NCBI GenBank assembly: GCA_024572335.1
Contig: GCA_024572335.1_3052.1
Reading direction: 5' to 3' (one strand)
DNA from: a phage
Length of the DNA stretch: 64,000 bases
Part shown: piece by piece, positions 6,369 through 15,682 of the stretch
How the letters are laid out: each line of letters starts with the position of its first letter
Numbering within the stretch: the stretch's first letter is position 1
Program-made: the position numbers and the translations under genes
Notes under the pieces: model-generated
What the model was told of the DNA's origin: nothing
What the model saw: only the letters and a program-made list of their open reading frames with translations
The model's database searches: none

Positions 6369-6854
6369 TCAAGTATTGTAAAACATTTGATTCAATCGCT
6401 TATATTGCCGAATCTTTTGGTCAGAAAAAGAAATTTGAGTTTCAAGCCATTCAATGTACTCTGCGGCAGCTTGCATTAAATTTCCTTCATAGCCATCGTT
6501 ATTTTCTTGTGCAGCTAATTTAGCTAATGCGTATGGAATACGTTCACCTTGAAAATCGGCTTTAGGCTTCTGAACAACTTGATTAGTTCTCTCTACAACT
6601 TCTTCAATTTCGCCATTTTCGACTGATTCAGTATTCCACAAGCACCAATACGTAATTGGCTTATCGTAGATATTAATAATCTTTCCATCAGAAAGTTCAA
6701 TTTCAATAATTCCAGTAACAGGTTCTATATCATCTTCACATTCTTTTGCAAGTTCACGAACTTTAAAGACAGTACCTGCACTAAGTTCCGGCCAGTAATT
6801 ACACAGCCCTGTATCAGCACGATTAATTCTAAACCACTTATCTACTGTAATCAT
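6369..6854 (-). CDS. pin: putative protease inhibitor Pin-like protein
   Basis: 161 aa from ATG at 6852-6854 (complement); located between 49 and nrdC as in T4; identity by position and size only. Confidence 0.5.
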   Translation of the reverse strand: MITVDKWFRINRADTGLCNYWPELSAGTVFKVRELAKECEDDIEPVTGIIEIELSDGKIINIYDKPITYWCLWNTESVENGEIEEVVERTNQVVQKPKADFQGERIPYALAKLAAQENNDGYEGNLMQAAAEYIEWLETQISFSDQKIRQYKRLNQMFYNT

Positions 6855-6973: not shown

Positions 6974-7147
6974 GGTTTAACCCCGAAGCTTATTAAGTTC
7001 TTCATAATCAATCCAGGATTCTAATCCTGATGGCAGGTCACATTCAATTTCCCAAAGAAGTTCTTCAATTTTATGAAGACGATCTAATTCTTCAACAGGA
7101 ATAGTAACCATTGATGGAGCTCTTGCTGCACTAATATCGTATATCAT
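6974..7147 (-). CDS. hypothetical small protein (57 aa)
   Basis: ATG 7145-7147 (complement) just after stop of upstream ORF; below ORF-track size cutoff. Confidence 0.25.
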
Positions 7148-7149
7148 AT

Positions 7150-7365
7150 TTACCCCAATTTAACCATACAATCGCCATATTTCCACTTAGAAATAGACTT
7201 TTCACCATTAGAATAATAAACTTCGAGTTTAGCACGATTATTTTTAATTTGAATAACCTTGGCTGTCATCAAAGTTCCATACCCATAATAAACTGCAACT
7301 TCATCACCTACATATACCGCGCTTCCGCGGTAATCATGAATATAGTCAGTTCCTTCAAGCATCAT
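7150..7365 (-). CDS. hypothetical protein (71 aa)
   Basis: ORF overlapping nrdC stop by 4 nt. Confidence 0.45.
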   Translation of the reverse strand: MMLEGTDYIHDYRGSAVYVGDEVAVYYGYGTLMTAKVIQIKNNRAKLEVYYSNGEKSISKWKYGDCMVKLG

Positions 7366-7626: not shown

Positions 7627-7884
7627 TTATTCCTTAATTCCTAGTACTTGTTTAAAAGTCTCGTCGTAATCAAGACTTTGGCCCGTTTGTTCTTTATGTT
7701 TGTATATAATATCACTTACTTCTGATAGCATATTTTTATATGAACGAGTTAAAGCAGATTTAAGCACGCTGTATCTATCAGGAAATTTACCATGTTCATT
7801 ATAATACGCTATTGCTAATTCACGGACTGCCTTTTCAGCAGTCTCCATATATTCTTTACGCTTTGTCATTTTCTTCTCGGTCAA
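7627..7884 (-). CDS. hypothetical protein (85 aa)
   Basis: ORF, first of 11 ORFs between nrdC and the rI region. Confidence 0.45.
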
Positions 7885-8173
7885 ATCGGTGTTTACAATG
7901 ACGACATTTATAACGAAGATTACTAGTCTGCCAATGAACTAATTGTACCTGTTCAGTACCGCATTCAGGACAATTAGGAACGCTTTTAGAAGCCCTTTCG
8001 CGACGTTCAACCATAGCCATAATGGCATCCCAAGCTGGAGGTTTAAAATCTAAATCATCACAACCGTGAATCTTTCCACGCATTTCCAGATCGTCTTCTT
8101 CACCAGCCATAATAATTTTAATTAGACTGGAATTACTTGAAGCTGCAATATCTTCTAATAGACGCTTTTTCAT
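7856..8173 (-). CDS. zinc-ribbon protein (105 aa)
   Basis: CPECG...CRHCKH four-cysteine zinc ribbon. Confidence 0.5.
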
Positions 8174-9093
8174 TTCAGTACCTCAATAGCATCACGTAAA
8201 CCATTTGCTTTGGCGGTTAAAGCCTTAATAACTTTAGTATGCTCTTCAATCTGTTTTTCAACTTCAATCAAACGGGCACTGAGATATTCGCGTTCTTCTT
8301 TCATAGTATCATTCCCATGATTGGGCTTTGGCGTAGATTTAAATTTACTAGGGTCCTTTAACTTAATAACAACTTTAGTTTCAAACAGTGAAAGACCATA
8401 ATTCGTATTATCATCAAAGGATTCAACTACGTCCATTTTAGACAATAACGTACGAAGATTATAAGTCAAAGAACGAATCGTTTTATTATGTTTATTAGCT
8501 TCGCATGGTTTCATATATGGAAGATTTTTATATATTTCATGTGGAGCACAAACAATAATTGACAATTCAACTGGTCCATTCTGCGATGGAATGAATTTAG
8601 CCGTAACCCAATCTTTTACATTTACATTAATAGTACGGTCATCGCCATGACAAAACAGTCTACGAGAATGCTTAAAAAGCATATTCACATTATTATTAAA
8701 TTCGTGTGAAAACTCACTAGCAAATTTTTCTTTACTATTTTTAGAAAACCATTCTTCTAAATAAGTTCTTTTCACGTCATTAATAATATTAAATGTAACA
8801 ACATTAGCATTTGATACATTAGTCTCAATGTAGCTTGGATACATAAATTTTTTAACATTATTAACAGCTATCACAGAAGATAGTAATCGGGAACGTTTAA
8901 ACCATTCAAGCAAATTGCCTAACGAATGAGAATAAGCGTTTTGAGTATCTTTACAGATATGATTTTCCTGACCAACATATTGAAGGAAATCACGAAGAAT
9001 ATTATTGATTACTGCTCTGTGCCCGATCTGATAATTACGGTGTTTAGTAATAAGACTGTCAAAATAATCAATATAATGTTTACGAGTTTTCAT
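8170..9093 (-). CDS. hypothetical protein with C-terminal coiled coil (307 aa)
   Basis: N-terminus MKTRK...; heptad-like tail [42 protein letters not shown]. Confidence 0.55.
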   Translation of the reverse strand: MKTRKHYIDYFDSLITKHRNYQIGHRAVINNILRDFLQYVGQENHICKDTQNAYSHSLGNLLEWFKRSRLLSSVIAVNNVKKFMYPSYIETNVSNANVVTFNIINDVKRTYLEEWFSKNSKEKFASEFSHEFNNNVNMLFKHSRRLFCHGDDRTINVNVKDWVTAKFIPSQNGPVELSIIVCAPHEIYKNLPYMKPCEANKHNKTIRSLTYNLRTLLSKMDVVESFDDNTNYGLSLFETKVVIKLKDPSKFKSTPKPNHGNDTMKEEREYLSARLIEVEKQIEEHTKVIKALTAKANGLRDAIEVLK

Positions 9094-9145
9094 ATTCTTC
9101 TCACTTGGTTAATGGTTTATACTCCGAGCCATCCTTGGCTTTAAA

Positions 9146-10147
9146 TTACTTAATTAACTGTAAAGCTTGTTCAAGACGATCAAGACGATTAACGGATTCT
9201 TCCCAAATCTTTTTAGCCTGCTCATATTCTTTCTGCGCTTTATTAGAAATTTCTAGAACTTCTTTATAAGCTTTTTCTAGTGCAATAACTTCTGGACGAA
9301 TTTCTACCGGTTCAGGTGAATCGTCAAGATTATCCATTAGTTCCTCAAGGGTAGTTTCTTCTTTAGGAGTATTCACAATTTCCTCACATTTTTGTTGATA
9401 AATTTCTTTATCAGTAGGTGAATAAGCACATTTCACTTCACGAAGACTAATTACAATTTTATATCCTTCCCATCCGCATATATTCTTAAAAGGATATGTA
9501 TGAATATTTTCTACTGTTTCCATACAAAGTAATGCAGTCTCTAACTGACGAGTTATAGTGCTAGCAATTGAGAAAAATTTATTAATATTCTTTTGGTTAG
9601 TTTCTGGTGTAAAAAATCCATAATTCACAAAAATAGCTACTTTATTTTTATCAAGCTCATATTCTTTTACGATAATCATATCAGAAGCCAAAGGATGAAT
9701 TTGACGATAATCGCCATAACATAATTTAGAAGCTGATTTTAGAATTTGTCCTTTGAAAAGTCTGAAATTACTAATCCAACGACGAGTAAAAATATTCTCA
9801 GGGTCTTCTTTATTATTAAGATGATAAGAATTAACATCACCGAACCAATTATATCCTACTACATCTTTAGTTCGTTTAATTTCTTTCCCAAAATTACCAA
9901 GAATATCCCGATTAACCAAATATGAAAGAAGACGAGACTCTTTAAAAGTTTTTTTGATAACATCTTTATCTACACGGCTAGAAATTTTACGAATTTCATG
10001 AATAAATTTAGTAGAAGAAACAATACTTGCATCAACACTATTGAGCCATTGATTGATAATAGAAAGAACGATATTTTGACCAAACATCGGTATAGCTTTA
10101 TCATCAATAACGCTATTGAATGATTTGATATATTCGTTACGAGTCAT
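9146..10147 (-). CDS. hypothetical protein with C-terminal coiled coil (333 aa)
   Basis: start at MTRNEY (ATG 10145-10147, complement) preceded by GAGGAG SD; coiled-coil tail ...QAKKIWEESVNRLDRLEQALQLIK. Confidence 0.55.
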   Translation of the reverse strand: MTRNEYIKSFNSVIDDKAIPMFGQNIVLSIINQWLNSVDASIVSSTKFIHEIRKISSRVDKDVIKKTFKESRLLSYLVNRDILGNFGKEIKRTKDVVGYNWFGDVNSYHLNNKEDPENIFTRRWISNFRLFKGQILKSASKLCYGDYRQIHPLASDMIIVKEYELDKNKVAIFVNYGFFTPETNQKNINKFFSIASTITRQLETALLCMETVENIHTYPFKNICGWEGYKIVISLREVKCAYSPTDKEIYQQKCEEIVNTPKEETTLEELMDNLDDSPEPVEIRPEVIALEKAYKEVLEISNKAQKEYEQAKKIWEESVNRLDRLEQALQLIK

Positions 10148-10178
10148 AATAATAATCTCCTCAGTAGAAAGTAAGAAC

Positions 10179-10208
10179 ATTATACCACATCCTTGTGGCA
10201 ATGTAAAC
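10179..10208 (-). promoter_or_regulatory. early promoter
   Basis: GTTTAC (10203-10208) - 18 bp - TATAAT (10179-10184) on minus strand. Confidence 0.55.
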
Positions 10209-11227
10209 TAGTTCAGTGCATTTAGTGCATTGTTCAGTTTAGAACGTTGCTTCGTAAGATTTTTGACTTTTTCTTGAGCTTTTTCCAACATCTTTTCAGC
10301 TTCTAGCACTTCATTAGTTGCTTTAACGAGTTCATCATCTACTGCCTTAAGGGACTTCTCAATCGCATCCGCGTGCCATTTTTCAACAGGTTTAAGACTC
10401 GGATTTTCAATAGGAAGAAAATTCACTTTATTGAATTTCCATGCATCTTTATTACCTGAACTATACATCCAAAATTTAGGATCATTTGACGAGTAATTAG
10501 ATAAATTTAAGGTATCTTGTACTTCCTGCTTTTTCTCTTGTGTAACTTCGTCCTTTCTCAAAAAATCGTATTTAAATGAAACGATCATATCAAGTTCATA
10601 TGTTGTTGTGTCTAATTTAAATCGTTCGAAATGCTGTGAAATCTTAGACTGAACTGCAGCAACAACATCCATATACTTAAATGCTTCTGTCAGCTGTGAT
10701 TTAAGGCATTCACAAATTGAAAGAGAATTTTTTGTATTAGGTTTAAAGCTAATTCGTGCAGTTCTATTATTTTCTTTTAATGGTCTTACTTCCATCTGAA
10801 GAGTATAACCATCAAATTTCAGATTCTTTAAGTTAATATCAGAGCCTTTTAATCGACTAGCCGTCGACAAAATTTGCTTTAATTGTTTACGGAATAGAGC
10901 AATAAATCTCCACTCAAGACGATAATGATTTGGATTAAAAAATCCAGATGATAAATCGACCTTACTCTGACCAACACCTTGAACAAACAGAGGATTTTTA
11001 TAATCAATAGTTTTACAGAAATCGGTGAGCTGCTCACGAGCAGTCATTTGTGTAATATACCCCGCTTTACTAAAATGACGTAACCATTCACTGCTATTCA
11101 TATATTTAAAGTGAATATCACGATTAACTTTATCAGGGTCTAAATTATTTTGGCACAAAAATGTCATAACATCACGAGTATAGCTGGCATTACGAACCAT
11201 ATCTTCAATTTGAGAACGAGTTTTCAT
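10208..11227 (-). CDS. hypothetical protein with C-terminal coiled coil (339 aa)
   Basis: N-terminus MKTRSQ...; tail ...EKMLEKAQEKVKNLTKQRSKLNNALNALN. Confidence 0.55.
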   Translation of the reverse strand: MKTRSQIEDMVRNASYTRDVMTFLCQNNLDPDKVNRDIHFKYMNSSEWLRHFSKAGYITQMTAREQLTDFCKTIDYKNPLFVQGVGQSKVDLSSGFFNPNHYRLEWRFIALFRKQLKQILSTASRLKGSDINLKNLKFDGYTLQMEVRPLKENNRTARISFKPNTKNSLSICECLKSQLTEAFKYMDVVAAVQSKISQHFERFKLDTTTYELDMIVSFKYDFLRKDEVTQEKKQEVQDTLNLSNYSSNDPKFWMYSSGNKDAWKFNKVNFLPIENPSLKPVEKWHADAIEKSLKAVDDELVKATNEVLEAEKMLEKAQEKVKNLTKQRSKLNNALNALN

Positions 11228-11235
11228 GGTGTTCC

Positions 11236-12138
11236 TTAAGATTTAAGTAAATCGACAATTTTAATTAACTTTTCACGCTCAGATTTAGCTTTACTACTCA
11301 ATCCAGATAGTCTGAAAATTTCATCGTCATACTGTTGAATAGAAATATTCAGCTCTTCAATTTGCTTATTAAAATAATCAATTTGTTCAGAATGTTTTTC
11401 ATTACTACGAACTGGTACAGGTTTTGTAGGTAATTTAGATGAACTGGATTCATCCGGGCGATAAATTAAAATACAACTTGAACCAATCGGGCATTTAGCA
11501 CCAGATGAATATTCTAATGTTCCGACTTCTTTTAAAACTTCAAAAGCTAAACAGAGATGATGCCCCATATTAACATAATCTGTAGAGCGAGCTCTGATGT
11601 AATAATCATCTCCGCGAATACTAAATTTAAAGCATTTAAGGTCTTCTGTATTATTGGTCTTAAAAATCATTTGTTTATCTAGACCTTTAGCTAATCGAGC
11701 GCCTAATGCTAATAATCGTCGTTGATTTTCCCACAAATCCGCAATCATTTGGTCAAATGATAATTTCGGCATTAGTCGACCATAAAGGTCGTATCCTTTA
11801 TTATAATTGCGAAGGATTTCACTCGCGTTAATACGAGACAATGCTCCAATTTTATTAAGTGCTTTCATAATGCGATTAGATAAACTCATTCCAGATCCGT
11901 TTGTTCGCTGTAAATGTTTTTCTAATCCAAATCCAATATCAACTTTAAATTTATCTAAAATTTCAGCATGAACATCTCTGTCAATAACATTCAAATCCAA
12001 AGTTGGGTTAAATCTATGAAAAAATTTATCTGGCTCTCCACGACGAAGTACAGTCCATTCATTTAATTTTTTATTAACTAAAGATTTAATTACTGCATTG
12101 ACATTATTAATTACTACTGACATATTTTTCTCACTCAA
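11236..12138 (-). CDS. hypothetical protein with C-terminal coiled coil (300 aa)
   Basis: tail ...IDYFNKQIEELNISIQQYDDEIFRLSGLSSKAKSEREKLIKIVDLLKS. Confidence 0.55.
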   Translation of the reverse strand: MSEKNMSVVINNVNAVIKSLVNKKLNEWTVLRRGEPDKFFHRFNPTLDLNVIDRDVHAEILDKFKVDIGFGLEKHLQRTNGSGMSLSNRIMKALNKIGALSRINASEILRNYNKGYDLYGRLMPKLSFDQMIADLWENQRRLLALGARLAKGLDKQMIFKTNNTEDLKCFKFSIRGDDYYIRARSTDYVNMGHHLCLAFEVLKEVGTLEYSSGAKCPIGSSCILIYRPDESSSSKLPTKPVPVRSNEKHSEQIDYFNKQIEELNISIQQYDDEIFRLSGLSSKAKSEREKLIKIVDLLKS

Positions 12139-12539
12139 TTTTCAATTTTACTAAATACACAGAATATGATGGAAAAGACTATATAAGCACCGCATACAGA
12201 TTGAACTAATACCATTCCAAAGAACCAAACAATATTATCAAACAATGTCTGTTTTACGTCGAAAGGACGTAAACTTACAGTAATATTATCGCCTTTTTCT
12301 ATTGATGAATACATCTCTGGTGAAATATATTCACTAAATCTATAACCGTCTTTGAGTTCATATACGGCAATAAACGATAAACTAGACCCCTTTCCTTGAG
12401 TTCCTGTAAGGGTATTAACTACAGTAACATCATAATCTTTATAATGCATATAATCATTAATTGCGTAATAACCATATGCAATTACTACACATAAACAACA
12501 TATCAATAAATTCAATCTTTTAATTATCAACTGTTTCAT
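12135..12539 (-). CDS. membrane protein (134 aa, N- and C-terminal TM helices)
   Basis: hydrophobic segments LNLLICCLCVVIAYGYYAI and IVWFFGMVLVQSVCGAYIVFSIIFCVF; preceded by TGGTATAAT extended -10. Confidence 0.5.
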   Translation of the reverse strand: MKQLIIKRLNLLICCLCVVIAYGYYAINDYMHYKDYDVTVVNTLTGTQGKGSSLSFIAVYELKDGYRFSEYISPEMYSSIEKGDNITVSLRPFDVKQTLFDNIVWFFGMVLVQSVCGAYIVFSIIFCVFSKIEN

Positions 12540-12594
12540 AATAATCTCAATTAAAAGGGCTTAGAACCATTATACCATCCTTGGTATAAAGCGG

Positions 12595-13122
12595 TTATGC
12601 GAGTACCGTCTTTAACCGTTCTTCAAACTTCCGAAGAGTATTTTGGCGTTCAGCTCTTTGCTTTTTGTAAGTTTCAATACGCTCTGAAATGAGAGTGTAT
12701 CGCTCATTTACTGATTCTTTCATAAAATCAGGAATTTCACGAGAAGCTTTAATCTCGTCAAATTTATCAATAACAGCTTGCTCTTCAGCAATTAAGTTAT
12801 CATACATTAAAATATCTTTCTTGATAAACTCAATATCTTCTTGAGTTACACGAGATAATTTAGATGCTTTATCCTTTTTGTACTGTTCGTTAGTATCACG
12901 AGACCAGTGTAATGTACGATTTTTATTCGTGTTCTTGTAAATTTCTACAATACCAATCTCATCGATAATAACGATCCAATTCCAACGGGATTTGTAAATT
13001 TGTCCTCCATCAACAGTGATTTCACCACCGATTGAGACATCATTAAAGAACTTGCTTTGAGCTTCAGATTTAAATTTACCATCGTTATAATTTATCAGGT
13101 TGAAAATATCTTTAGCGTTCAT
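12595..13122 (-). CDS. hypothetical protein with C-terminal coiled coil (175 aa)
   Basis: tail ...ERYTLISERIETYKKQRAERQNTLRKFEERLKTVLA; early promoter 13150-13179 upstream. Confidence 0.5.
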   Translation of the reverse strand: MNAKDIFNLINYNDGKFKSEAQSKFFNDVSIGGEITVDGGQIYKSRWNWIVIIDEIGIVEIYKNTNKNRTLHWSRDTNEQYKKDKASKLSRVTQEDIEFIKKDILMYDNLIAEEQAVIDKFDEIKASREIPDFMKESVNERYTLISERIETYKKQRAERQNTLRKFEERLKTVLA

Positions 13123-13149
13123 TTTTGTTCCTCCGTAGTTGATAGTTGC

Positions 13150-13179
13150 ATAGTACCACAGAGGAACGGTCTTGTAAAC
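13150..13179 (-). promoter_or_regulatory. early promoter
   Basis: GTTTAC (13174-13179) - 18 bp - TACTAT (13150-13155). Confidence 0.55.
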
Positions 13180-13181
13180 AA

Positions 13182-13496
13182 CTAAAAGAAACTTCTTTCA
13201 CAATTTTTTCCACTGAACCAAGCGCTCACTGCTTTCTTAGTCTCAGGAGCAGTGTTATCCATAAACCATTCAAAGGCAGCCTTTTTATGATTCTGGAGGG
13301 CTTCTCGGGCTTTAATCTGCTCACGGTCTATTAACACTAACATATGAGCCTTTCTTGTCACCAAAGGCTTCTTATGATTTTTTGAATACTCCCAATCATT
13401 TGTCCAACGCATTGTCGTTGCGAACTGATGAACCGCGTCTTTAATTTTAGTTTCATAAATTTCACGAGCTTTTGAGTATAACATCTTTACCTCCAT
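13182..13496 (-). CDS. hypothetical protein (104 aa)
   Basis: ORF. Confidence 0.45.
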   Translation of the reverse strand: MEVKMLYSKAREIYETKIKDAVHQFATTMRWTNDWEYSKNHKKPLVTRKAHMLVLIDREQIKAREALQNHKKAAFEWFMDNTAPETKKAVSAWFSGKNCERSFF

Positions 13497-13585
13497 TTAC
13501 CAGTTTAATTCTAGTCATCTTTTTAATGGCAGTCCATATAATCTATTTCTGAACTGCCTTTTTGTCTTAGAAGTCCTCTTATGAA

Positions 13586-14566
13586 TTATTTCAGAAGAGT
13601 AACCTCAGCGATTTCTTCCCAACCGTTTTTGTCGGTCATAATAAAGTCAGCAAGATAAAGCGCAGTACGCAGTGAAACATTGCGTAAACGATTAACATTG
13701 ACTTTCATCCATGATAATGCTTTATAAGTTTCTTCATCAGAAAGACCGCGCTTTTGCATCATGTCAGTTGAAAGAATAACATCTTCAACCCTGACCATAA
13801 TTTCTTCATTAGTGTGAACACCCAAATCCAAATAAACTGAGCGGGACACTAATGCTTGTAAATGCGGAGCAAGTTTAGTACCACGGTCTAATTCGCGGTC
13901 AATGTCAACGTTTGTGATAAAAACAATCGTTCCTTTAAATTCAAACTCACGCTCAATGCCTTTTTCTTCTAAGTAAGAAGATGTGGTGCTCCAGCAGACT
14001 TTACGGGTCTCTCCAGTGTCCAGAGCAGCTTTCAGAAGATTAAGAATGTCCATATCAGAGAAAACATCCACATCATCAATCAAAAGGACAGAATTCTCTT
14101 CACGATTATTCCAAAGCTGTTCATAAAGACCAATACCAGAGATTTTACCATTAATGCTTTTATATTCAATGTATCCAATATCATTTGCTTTATTTAAAGC
14201 TTTATCTAAAGAATACGTTTTACCAATACCCGCCGCACCAGAGATAATTAATGAACGAATGTTTCCGTTAATAATACCATTCGTCATCATTCCCATAACA
14301 TTAAATCTTTTATTAATGCGGGTTTTCATATCTTCATACGATTCTTTAACTTCTTCAACTTTTACACCATCATATGAAATGTCTGATTTATAAACCCAAA
14401 CACCGCGACGTTTACCGTCAATTTCAACAAAAACTTTACCATCTCCTTGTGCATCTACCGGAGCATTATCTGGGAACCATTCGCCTAAGAGCTCAAAAGT
14501 TCCAGAGATTTCTTTACCGAAGTAGATACCCTTATTGATAGTTACAGTTTTCATTTTATTCTCCAA
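13586..14566 (-). CDS. AAA+/P-loop ATPase
   Basis: Walker A GAAGIGKT, Walker B VLLIDDVD, sensor-like TIVFITN; 326 aa. Confidence 0.7.
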   Translation of the reverse strand: MENKMKTVTINKGIYFGKEISGTFELLGEWFPDNAPVDAQGDGKVFVEIDGKRRGVWVYKSDISYDGVKVEEVKESYEDMKTRINKRFNVMGMMTNGIINGNIRSLIISGAAGIGKTYSLDKALNKANDIGYIEYKSINGKISGIGLYEQLWNNREENSVLLIDDVDVFSDMDILNLLKAALDTGETRKVCWSTTSSYLEEKGIEREFEFKGTIVFITNVDIDRELDRGTKLAPHLQALVSRSVYLDLGVHTNEEIMVRVEDVILSTDMMQKRGLSDEETYKALSWMKVNVNRLRNVSLRTALYLADFIMTDKNGWEEIAEVTLLK

Positions 14567-14588
14567 ATCCGTATCAGTTGATAGTTGT

Positions 14589-14618
14589 ATAGTACCATAA
14601 AGCTTTATGCTTGTAAAC
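14589..14618 (-). promoter_or_regulatory. early promoter
   Basis: GTTTAC (14613-14618) - 18 bp - TACTAT (14589-14594); AAAGCTTT palindrome in spacer. Confidence 0.55.
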
Positions 14619-14640
14619 CGTTTTGTGAAAAATTTTTGAA

Positions 14641-14667
14641 ATAAAAAAGGGAGCCCGAAGGCTCCCT
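14641..14667 (-). terminator. intrinsic terminator
   Basis: minus-strand GGGAGCC-UUCG-GGCUCCC followed by UUUUUUAU. Confidence 0.65.
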
Positions 14668-14668
14668 A

Positions 14669-15682
14669 TCATTTATAATAACTTCGGTGGTTTTCAAGAT
14701 AAACCCTCTCAAGGAAGTCATCCCAAAAACCCATGTCTACTTTTTGCTGCATACCGTTCTTAGAAGCTTCAATAGATGCTGCTTCTACTTGATCGACCAC
14801 ATCTTCCAAAAACTCTTGAACAGTTTTAAATGGGTGTTTACCCAGCTTCACGTCGAGAATAAATGGAGCGTCTTGAAGTGGATAGACTAAGTCACCAGTT
14901 TTGTAAATTTCCAATAGTTGGAGTCCACCACGACAAGCATGACTCAGAGCTTTCCAGTCAATGCCCTCATTCGCTTCAGCCTTACGAGCACGTTCGCCGT
15001 ATTCAGCATCAAGTTTATTCAAAGACTGCTTAAGCTCAATAAGAGAAAGTGTTGTCTGATATTTACGACCCAACACAGTGTAGAACGTTTGTGGACCGGT
15101 TTTCTCATGATTATGGAATACCCATTCACAAAACTCGTTTTCAGGGAGTCGGTGTTTGATATCTTCTACCTTAGTTCGGCGTAAACGATCTGGAATTCCC
15201 TCTTGGTAATCAACCCACTGGTCAGGGATTTGATTAACTACTTTCAATACATCACGTAATGCGGCCAAACGAGAACCCTTGACACCGTATTTAGAAGCTT
15301 GCTTGCGGACATATCCTAAATAGGATTTCATGTTAGTCGTATAAAAACGAGAACGGTTGTCTTGAATAAACTTCCACACATCAGGCAAATCAGATTTAAC
15401 CACTAGTTCAGGTGGAGTGTGAAGCATATCCAATGCTACAGTTTCACCATCTGCTGCTAATTTAAAGAAATATTTAAGACTGTATAGTTCATGGTCAATA
15501 TCATCTTTAGTGTTTTTAGATGATGTGTTGTTAGTGTTTTTACTCATGTGCTCTTTGACATTTCCGATAAGAATATCGCGGGCAGGAGGAACAAAGATTT
15601 CTTTAAAATCTACATCAGATTCTGGGGTAGAAGTTCCATAAAGATGACTACCAAAATAGCTTTTCATTACTGTTTTCATCAT
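14669..15682 (-). CDS. Pol-beta superfamily nucleotidyltransferase-like protein
   Basis: GSHLYGTSTPESDVDF (hG[GS]x9-13 DxD) minimal NTase motif near N-terminus; 337 aa. Confidence 0.55.
   Translation of the reverse strand: MMKTVMKSYFGSHLYGTSTPESDVDFKEIFVPPARDILIGNVKEHMSKNTNNTSSKNTKDDIDHELYSLKYFFKLAADGETVALDMLHTPPELVVKSDLPDVWKFIQDNRSRFYTTNMKSYLGYVRKQASKYGVKGSRLAALRDVLKVVNQIPDQWVDYQEGIPDRLRRTKVEDIKHRLPENEFCEWVFHNHEKTGPQTFYTVLGRKYQTTLSLIELKQSLNKLDAEYGERARKAEANEGIDWKALSHACRGGLQLLEIYKTGDLVYPLQDAPFILDVKLGKHPFKTVQEFLEDVVDQVEAASIEASKNGMQQKVDMGFWDDFLERVYLENHRSYYK

Follow-up and report, generated by a model that had tools for sequence, protein, structure and literature searches.

Tandem paralogs of the anti-Dsr1 factor NrdC.5 in T4-like phages: a family with predicted heptad-patterned C-terminal helices and a candidate role in counter-defense

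We analyzed a 64,000-nucleotide stretch of phage DNA (GenBank assembly GCA_024572335.1, contig GCA_024572335.1_3052.1, referred to below as the window), which belongs to a Tequatrovirus, and focused on four consecutive genes, nrdC.3, nrdC.4, nrdC.5, and nrdC.6. They lie in a minus-strand block flanked by gp49, pin, and nrdC on one side and by nrdC.10 and nrdC.11 on the other. The four genes are whole-gene tandem paralogs that have diverged along their full length, and their products follow one predicted design: a helical plus alpha/beta head of ca. 230 to 260 residues, a linker of ca. 15 to 25 that is disordered and in many cases acidic, and an amphipathic heptad helix of ca. 45 to 55. This family is specific to the Straboviridae and dispensable, and it probably serves in counter-defense, its members binding different immune proteins directly.

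The original prediction, made from the sequence alone, described five proteins with distinct globular heads on a shared coiled-coil tail, interrupted by one membrane protein and reminiscent of a modular effector family. All five open reading frames (ORFs) do exist, on the minus strand, and each corresponds to an annotated T4 gene, the interrupting membrane protein at 12135-12539 is nrdC.7, and the M(K)TR start is indeed common to three of the proteins. The nature of the family turned out to be different, as described below.

NrdC.3 to NrdC.6 form one paralog family

NrdC.3 and NrdC.4 belong to one PHROG and are 23% identical over 250 residues by BLASTP, and their profiles align with 98% probability in hhalign (E value of 6e-14), a signal that was retained when the tails were removed (3e-14). 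The profiles of NrdC.4 and NrdC.5 aligned over 150 to 250 columns (E values of 1e-5 to 4e-5, 69 to 81% probability), and removal of the last 50 to 55 residues gave 1.2e-5 and 81%. To cover the whole family, we ran an iterative hidden Markov model (HMM) search of 216 ORFs from 27 T4-like loci, in which 60 C-terminal residues were cut from each ORF and a natural chimera (see below) was excluded. Seeded with either NrdC.3 or NrdC.4, the search reached a 324-amino-acid Klebsiella phage protein (E value of 2e-4), then NrdC.5 (1.1e-5), and then NrdC.6 (1.3e-4), and none of the unrelated ORFs among the 216 was recruited. The result of the equivalent full-length search was discarded, as nrdC.4 and nrdC.6 had been merged in it through the chimera of phage Manna.

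Three collinear motif blocks, roughly F-K-x-S-R-x-L-S...A...L..F, A-[SA]-[RK]-L-x-x-G-x-D, and L..A[FL]..M..V, were found in all four protein families as well as in their relatives from Klebsiella, Enterobacter, and Acinetobacter phages. In the AlphaFold2 (AF2) models of NrdC.4 and NrdC.6, the secondary-structure elements follow each other in identical order, and both models retrieved the same four proteins from BFVD with Foldseek (PM2 A0A0A0PZG4, IME523 A0A7G3KGN9, Acj9 E5EPQ6, and Acj61 E5E4A2), with E values of 2e-7 to 9e-6 for NrdC.4 and 1e-6 to 3e-4 for NrdC.6. The NrdC.4 model also matched NrdC.3 of phage fPS-65 (2.9e-7). The heads of the family are thus homologous independently of the tails, as indicated by tail-free hhalign, the tail-free HMM search, and the motif blocks, and the head-linker-helix arrangement is seen on the NrdC.4 and NrdC.6 models. 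Instead of the distinct, unrelated heads on one shared tail originally envisaged, we found full-length paralogs, each with its own tail sequence. What survives of the comparison to modular effectors is that the family is real, that NrdC.5 is a counter-defense factor, and that a head/tail swap occurred in Manna; grafting of heads onto a shared tail does not.

At the sequence level, the family is narrow, since an nrdC.4-family HMMER profile run against 1.84 billion representative proteins gave only seven matches, all of them nrdC.4 or nrdC.3 types or fragments; for the same reason, nrdC.5 and nrdC.6 are beyond the reach of a plain profile-sequence search. The same profile found T4 NrdC.3 (P0229) with an E value of 3.6e-8. 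Pfam and PHROGs split the family among PF26897, PF23882, and PF26899 and among phrog_1435, phrog_2351, and phrog_2257, and the paralogs are at most 20 to 25% identical to NrdC.5; paralogy explains this division into three or more seemingly unrelated entries. Scans of Pfam, NCBIfam, and PHROGs returned only domains or families of unknown function (DUF) and no catalytic domain, in line with the absence of catalytic motifs noted originally. A sequence search of the PDB with NrdC.4, NrdC.5, NrdC.6, and NrdC.8 yielded no real match, only designed helical repeats without a significant stretch.

The fifth protein, NrdC.8, had been counted as a family member and is not one. It showed no signal against the family in hhalign (E values of 0.04 to 0.6), was never recruited by the iterative HMM search even with tails included, and differs from the family in length and in conservation level, being 65 to 85% identical across four genera. 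We also scanned viral contigs for more distant copies of nrdC.8 and recovered only the same four genera. NrdC.8 is a small protein in its own right, conserved much more strongly than the family, and its helical heptad C terminus is its sole resemblance to the array.

Heptad-patterned C-terminal helices

To evaluate the tails, we used a home-made heptad score (not COILS or Marcoil) that takes the best 28-residue register within the last 50 residues, rewards hydrophobic residues at positions a and d, and penalizes hydrophobic residues elsewhere as well as Pro and Gly. As the null distribution, the same 50 residues were shuffled 2,000 times with their composition preserved. The scores of NrdC.3, NrdC.5, NrdC.6, and NrdC.8 exceeded those of their shuffles with P < 0.01 (values in Table 1), while NrdC.4 was borderline (P = 0.07) and the neighbors NrdC.2, NrdC.7, and NrdC.9 were unremarkable. 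Among the 69 non-nested ORFs of at least 100 amino acids in the window, nrdC.5, nrdC.3, and nrdC.8 ranked first to third and nrdC.4 fifth. Rank four was taken by pin (6369-6854), encoding the Lon inhibitor PinA, with a C-terminal heptad score of 0.55.

The NrdC.4 tail has an unbroken seven-heptad a/d register (a = V Y S Y W L L, d = L V A A S L I), and in the family alignments of the tails entropy is minimal at the heptad core positions and maximal at b, c, and f. The AF2 model of NrdC.4 (predicted local distance difference test [pLDDT] score of 81.9) consists of an alpha/beta head (residues 1 to 258), a disordered linker (259 to 284, pLDDT < 50), and a single helix (285 to 332). In that of NrdC.6 (pLDDT of 75.8), a disordered stretch at 231 to 247 is followed by helices at 250 to 276 and 282 to 299. 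Heptad periodicity beyond composition, in helices of at least four heptads, was therefore found throughout, with NrdC.4 borderline by shuffling, and the heptad-patterned C-terminal helices reported originally are real. Oligomerization through these predicted helices is plausible.

The tails each have their own sequence, and what they have in common is the heptad pattern and a weak C-terminal ending resembling L-x-x-A-[IL]-x-x-L-K. Profile alignment of the tails, which had been proposed as a check, did reveal weak similarity (hhalign E values of 2e-4 to 0.4, with weak in-register matches), which is insufficient for tail homology; we dropped the idea that tail-only profiles prove it because the signals were too weak and partly out of register.

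It could be argued, as the original prediction itself allowed, that the tails are an artifact of composition, with AT-rich codons giving helices rich in K, E, and N in five otherwise unrelated proteins. The region does have a GC content of only 32 to 34%, and the borderline NrdC.4 value, the weakness of the tail-only profile similarities, and the lack of relationship of NrdC.8 to the others would all fit. Nevertheless, we consider this explanation highly improbable: a purely compositional origin is rejected by the shuffles, which preserve composition, by the top ranks of the tails within an equally AT-rich window, by conservation that tracks the heptad positions, and by the long helices that AF2 predicts with confident pLDDT, and the homology of the heads persists without the tails. 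It is largely refuted for NrdC.3 to NrdC.6, while the resemblance of NrdC.8 to the family may be coincidental.

Conservation and selection

In comparisons between genera, conservation is higher in the tail than in the head for NrdC.3, NrdC.4, and NrdC.6; NrdC.5 is mixed. The identity of NrdC.3 to the Mosigvirus and Manna alleles is 0.70 to 0.78 in the tail and 0.56 to 0.60 in the head; for NrdC.6, the corresponding values between genera are 0.60 to 0.69 and 0.32 to 0.45, with saturated synonymous divergence. The mean column entropy of NrdC.4 is 0.56 in the tail and 1.24 in the head, and the NrdC.4 homolog P0226, only ca. 36% identical overall, has a nearly identical tail. Synonymous sites in the tails have reached saturation between genera, which places the constraint at the level of the protein rather than the DNA. 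The same saturation rules out the DNA-level causes that we considered, i.e., embedded promoters or recent gene conversion.

The ratio of nonsynonymous to synonymous substitution rates (dN/dS) between the window and T4 was 0.13 to 0.20 for nrdC.3 to nrdC.5 and 0.02 to 0.08 for nrdC.8, nrdC.10, nrdC.11, and gp49, indicating that the family members are under purifying selection yet evolve faster than their neighbors.

Distribution and plasticity

The array occupies the same locus across the Straboviridae, with a copy number that varies from one to four, which answers the question of conservation across T-even genomes raised with the original prediction. Tequatrovirus has four copies, Mosigvirus three (NrdC.6-like, NrdC.5-like, and NrdC.3-like), Gaprivervirus and Dhakavirus also three (NrdC.6, NrdC.5, and NrdC.4), and more distant genera one or two. 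Acinetobacter phage Acj61, for example, carries two adjacent homologs between nrdC and nrdC.10, as in the window, and we saw no obvious family member beside nrdC.10 in Aeromonas phage AhMtk13a. In the phage collection, the numbers of records retrieved by tblastn were 742 for nrdC.6 and likewise for nrdC.8, 654 for nrdC.3, 620 for nrdC.5, and 554 for nrdC.4.

Natural isolates show repeated loss and rearrangement. Phage ACG-C40 has lost nrdC.3 to nrdC.5, and in Pinarejo nrdC.6 has been lost with only its tail left. In Salmonella phage Manna, nrdC.5 is deleted and Manna_094 (L002 4215-5252) is an in-frame chimera of NrdC.6 residues 1 to ca. 265 with the linker and tail of NrdC.4, joined at a 10-nucleotide microhomology, TGATGAAATT (QQYDDEI / QQKCDEI). 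Another protein, P0056 (299 amino acids), appears to be a fusion in which a central part of NrdC.5 is followed by the C-terminal half of NrdC.3. An apparent internal tandem duplication of ca. 82 residues was observed in P0058, the NrdC.6 of Shigella phage Sf25 (378 amino acids).

The distribution of NrdC.3 within Tequatrovirus is bimodal, with ca. 140 records at least 90% identical to the window protein and 358 records at 60 to 80%. The two allele classes are ca. 62% identical, and the second one (e.g., that of Manna) shares 77% identity with the allele of Mosigvirus, a sequence pattern that suggests exchange of NrdC.3 alleles between genera. In T4, nrdC.3 to nrdC.9 were all classified as "Non-essential" by transposon sequencing (HIDEN-SEQ supplement, bioRxiv 10.1101/2025.11.20.689424).

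Counter-defense as the probable function

The T4 ORFs themselves and the phenotype of NrdC.5 are already known. A T4 clone without nrdC.5 failed on ECOR17 and on dsr1-carrying MG1655 and could infect again once nrdC.5 alone was expressed; the variable anti-defense region to which it belongs is expressed early (Srikant et al. 2022, PMC9391042). The window gene is the ortholog of this tested anti-Dsr1 gene, with 93.5% identity and the same position. Two neighbors also inhibit defense systems, gp49.2 acting on OLD (PMC13096335) and nrdC.1 on Septu (bioRxiv 10.1101/2025.11.20.689424). The sensor of Dsr1 is reported to be a tetratricopeptide repeat (TPR) solenoid triggered by the phage major capsid protein (2026 preprint, PMC12803255). 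Our literature search retrieved no paper on the mechanism of NrdC.5 or noting its paralogs and no report of NrdC.3, NrdC.4, or NrdC.6 inhibiting a defined defense system. Nor did we find, in databases or papers, a description of NrdC.3 to NrdC.6 as one superfamily, of their Straboviridae-wide syntenic locus, or of the head-linker-tail design with its unusually conserved tail.

In the mechanism that we propose, the paralogs would bind directly to host immune proteins, each to a different one, and thereby neutralize them; for NrdC.5, genetics points to the SIR2-type Dsr1 system. Target specificity would lie in the faster-evolving head, and the better-conserved tail would provide either self-association (a coiled coil, with the resulting avidity) or a conserved contact. 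Several observations weigh against this proposal or the family on which it is built. The link of nrdC.6 is weak in direct hhalign comparisons (E values of 0.005 to 0.04 with nrdC.4, where the alignment is nonetheless collinear, and 0.007 to 0.1 with nrdC.5), and the remaining evidence for it is structure prediction, through the element order and the shared Foldseek matches of the NrdC.4 and NrdC.6 AF2 models. The functional evidence is confined to NrdC.5 and genetic in kind. Gene-wide dN/dS is well below 1, so that pervasive positive selection is not evident, and in one comparison within the HIDEN-SEQ supplement the fitness effect of nrdC.3 to nrdC.6 was nonsignificant (q = 1; bioRxiv 10.1101/2025.11.20.689424).

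The paralogs might instead share a job unrelated to counter-defense, for instance the modulation, via the conserved tail, of some conserved process of host or phage, with the rescue by NrdC.5 on Dsr1 cells being indirect. Conservation of the tails above the heads is what contact with an invariant partner would produce, dN/dS stays below 0.25, and the literature we searched contains no published direct interaction between NrdC.5 and Dsr1. Such a job is, however, less expected of genes that are non-essential, that have been repeatedly deleted or fused in natural isolates, whose copy number ranges from one to four between genera, and that sit among proven anti-defense genes, and expression of NrdC.5 alone suffices to restore plating on the strain with the dsr1 plasmid; we regard this alternative as rather doubtful. 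The array could also represent diversified inhibitors of a single receptor class, the Dsr1/Avs7-type TPR sensors of phage structural proteins, each paralog or allele being tuned to a receptor variant. The tail helix would then be a common warhead or oligomerization module, for instance lying in the TPR groove in place of the capsid trigger, and the terminator-like head would confer specificity. We think that this more specific scenario is unlikely; were it true, in-frame head/tail swaps such as that of Manna would be a natural route to new specificities. Distinctly improbable, in our opinion, is that the heads act as decoys, posing as a virion protein and occupying sensors of structural proteins; in this idea, the alpha/beta core would resemble that of tail terminator or tail completion proteins (lambda gpU fold). 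NrdC.4 is encoded in an early-gene region and not in a tail module, has an additional N-terminal helical domain, linker, and predicted coiled-coil tail compared to gpU-fold proteins, and shows no sequence similarity to them; membership in that group is unsupported.

Comparison with known systems helps to place the direct-binding mechanism. The closest is T4 NrdC.5 itself (DUF7235, PF23882), of which NrdC.3, NrdC.4, and NrdC.6 are remote paralogs with the same architecture; it differs from them in having a demonstrated phenotype and in being filed under separate Pfam and PHROGs families. DSAD1, the SPbeta-phage inhibitor of DSR2, blocks a SIR2-type NADase defense by binding it, much as we propose for NrdC.5, although its target is DSR2 and not Dsr1 and no relationship in sequence or fold was found, none having been tested. 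The anti-defense islands of T-even phages (dmd-tifA-adfA, gp49.2 against OLD, and nrdC.1 against Septu) likewise consist of small, non-essential, early, and rapidly exchanged genes, and gp49.2 and nrdC.1 lie in the same T4 stretch, adjoining the array. Those islands are made of unrelated singletons, whereas the genes studied here are two to four paralogs in tandem, each of ca. 300 amino acids and with a conserved tail.

No new principle emerges yet from these data. T4 is the best-studied phage, and yet the label of this 4-kb block continues to be "hypothetical" or, erroneously, "thioredoxin"; as paralogs of the only known anti-Dsr1 factor, three uncharacterized genes now become concrete anti-defense candidates. 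The head/linker/tail map can be used to dissect the action of NrdC.5, and the deletions, allele replacement, and in-frame fusion provide a small natural example of how phage counter-defense genes are reshuffled.

Gene identities and neighboring genes

Bases 7800-13600 of the window are 95 to 97% identical end to end to many T4-like phages (95.0% to T4), and the products of the block are 92 to 98% identical to those of T4. ORFs were named against the T4T annotation (Table 1). The start of nrdC.6 was placed at the ATG at 12123 and not at the TTG at 12138 because all NrdC.6 homologs begin with MSVV or MSQA. Promoter-like sites in the region are at chance level in total, and the best of them is noteworthy only by its position.

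Table 1. Coordinates of the genes of the array, their C-terminal helices, and associated features in the window
Feature	Position	Strand	Remarks
nrdC.3 (307 aa)	8170..9093	-	94% identical to T4 NrdC.3; phrog_1435; family member, close paralog of nrdC.4
nrdC.4 (333 aa)	9146..10147	-	phrog_1435; homologs carry precomputed PF26897; family member
nrdC.5 (339 aa)	10208..11227	-	Pfam DUF7235, E value of 1.5e-122, full-length match; 93.5% identical to T4 NrdC.5; family member
nrdC.6 (295 aa)	11236..12123	-	phrog_2257; homologs carry PF26899; most divergent family member
nrdC.7, membrane protein with two hydrophobic segments	12135..12539	-	phrog_2547; outside the family
nrdC.8 (175 aa)	12595..13122	-	phrog_2274; helical heptad C terminus; outside the family
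NrdC.3 C-terminal heptad helix, residues ca. 263-307	8173..8307	-	Shuffle P = 0.0055
NrdC.4 C-terminal helix, residues 285-333	9149..9295	-	One 48-residue helix in the AF2 model
NrdC.5 C-terminal heptad helix, residues ca. 285-339	10211..10375	-	Top heptad score of the window, 0.76; shuffle P = 0.0025
NrdC.6 C-terminal helices, residues 250-300 (300-aa numbering)	11239..11391	-	AF2 helices; shuffle P = 0.0015
NrdC.8 helical heptad C terminus, residues ca. 139-175	12598-12708	-	Shuffle P = 0.009
Candidate sigma-70-like promoter, TTTACA-17-TATAAT with TG	10179..10207	-	In the nrdC.5/nrdC.4 gap; 11 of 12 positions matched, best of the region

In GenBank, the block from nrdC.1 to nrdC.11 (7856-15682) is often labeled "thioredoxin," which looks like spillover from the gene name nrdC; we found no thioredoxin domain in NrdC.3 to NrdC.8. 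T4 genes 49.2 and 49.3 are missing from the window, and two other small minus-strand genes (6977-7147 and 7150-7365) are found instead. They are shared with ACG-C40 and Pinarejo at 89 to 100% identity and form a variable cassette adjoining the array; for one of the two, the annotation in other records is "antitoxin from a toxin-antitoxin system."

The position of nrdC.7 is also variable, as it follows nrdC.2 in Mosigvirus and is missing from phages VR7 and FB. In Gaprivervirus and Dhakavirus it is absent, and a membrane ORF of 66 to 71 amino acids lies instead between nrdC.5 and nrdC.6. On the far side of the array, nrdC.10 (13586-14566) encodes an AAA/STAND-like ATPase and nrdC.11 (14669-15682) an RlaP-type nucleotidyltransferase, both far more widely conserved than the array. 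The slow-evolving nrdC.10 (dN/dS of 0.04 to 0.06) appears in 1,312 phage records, with Vibrio, Aeromonas, and jumbo phages among them.

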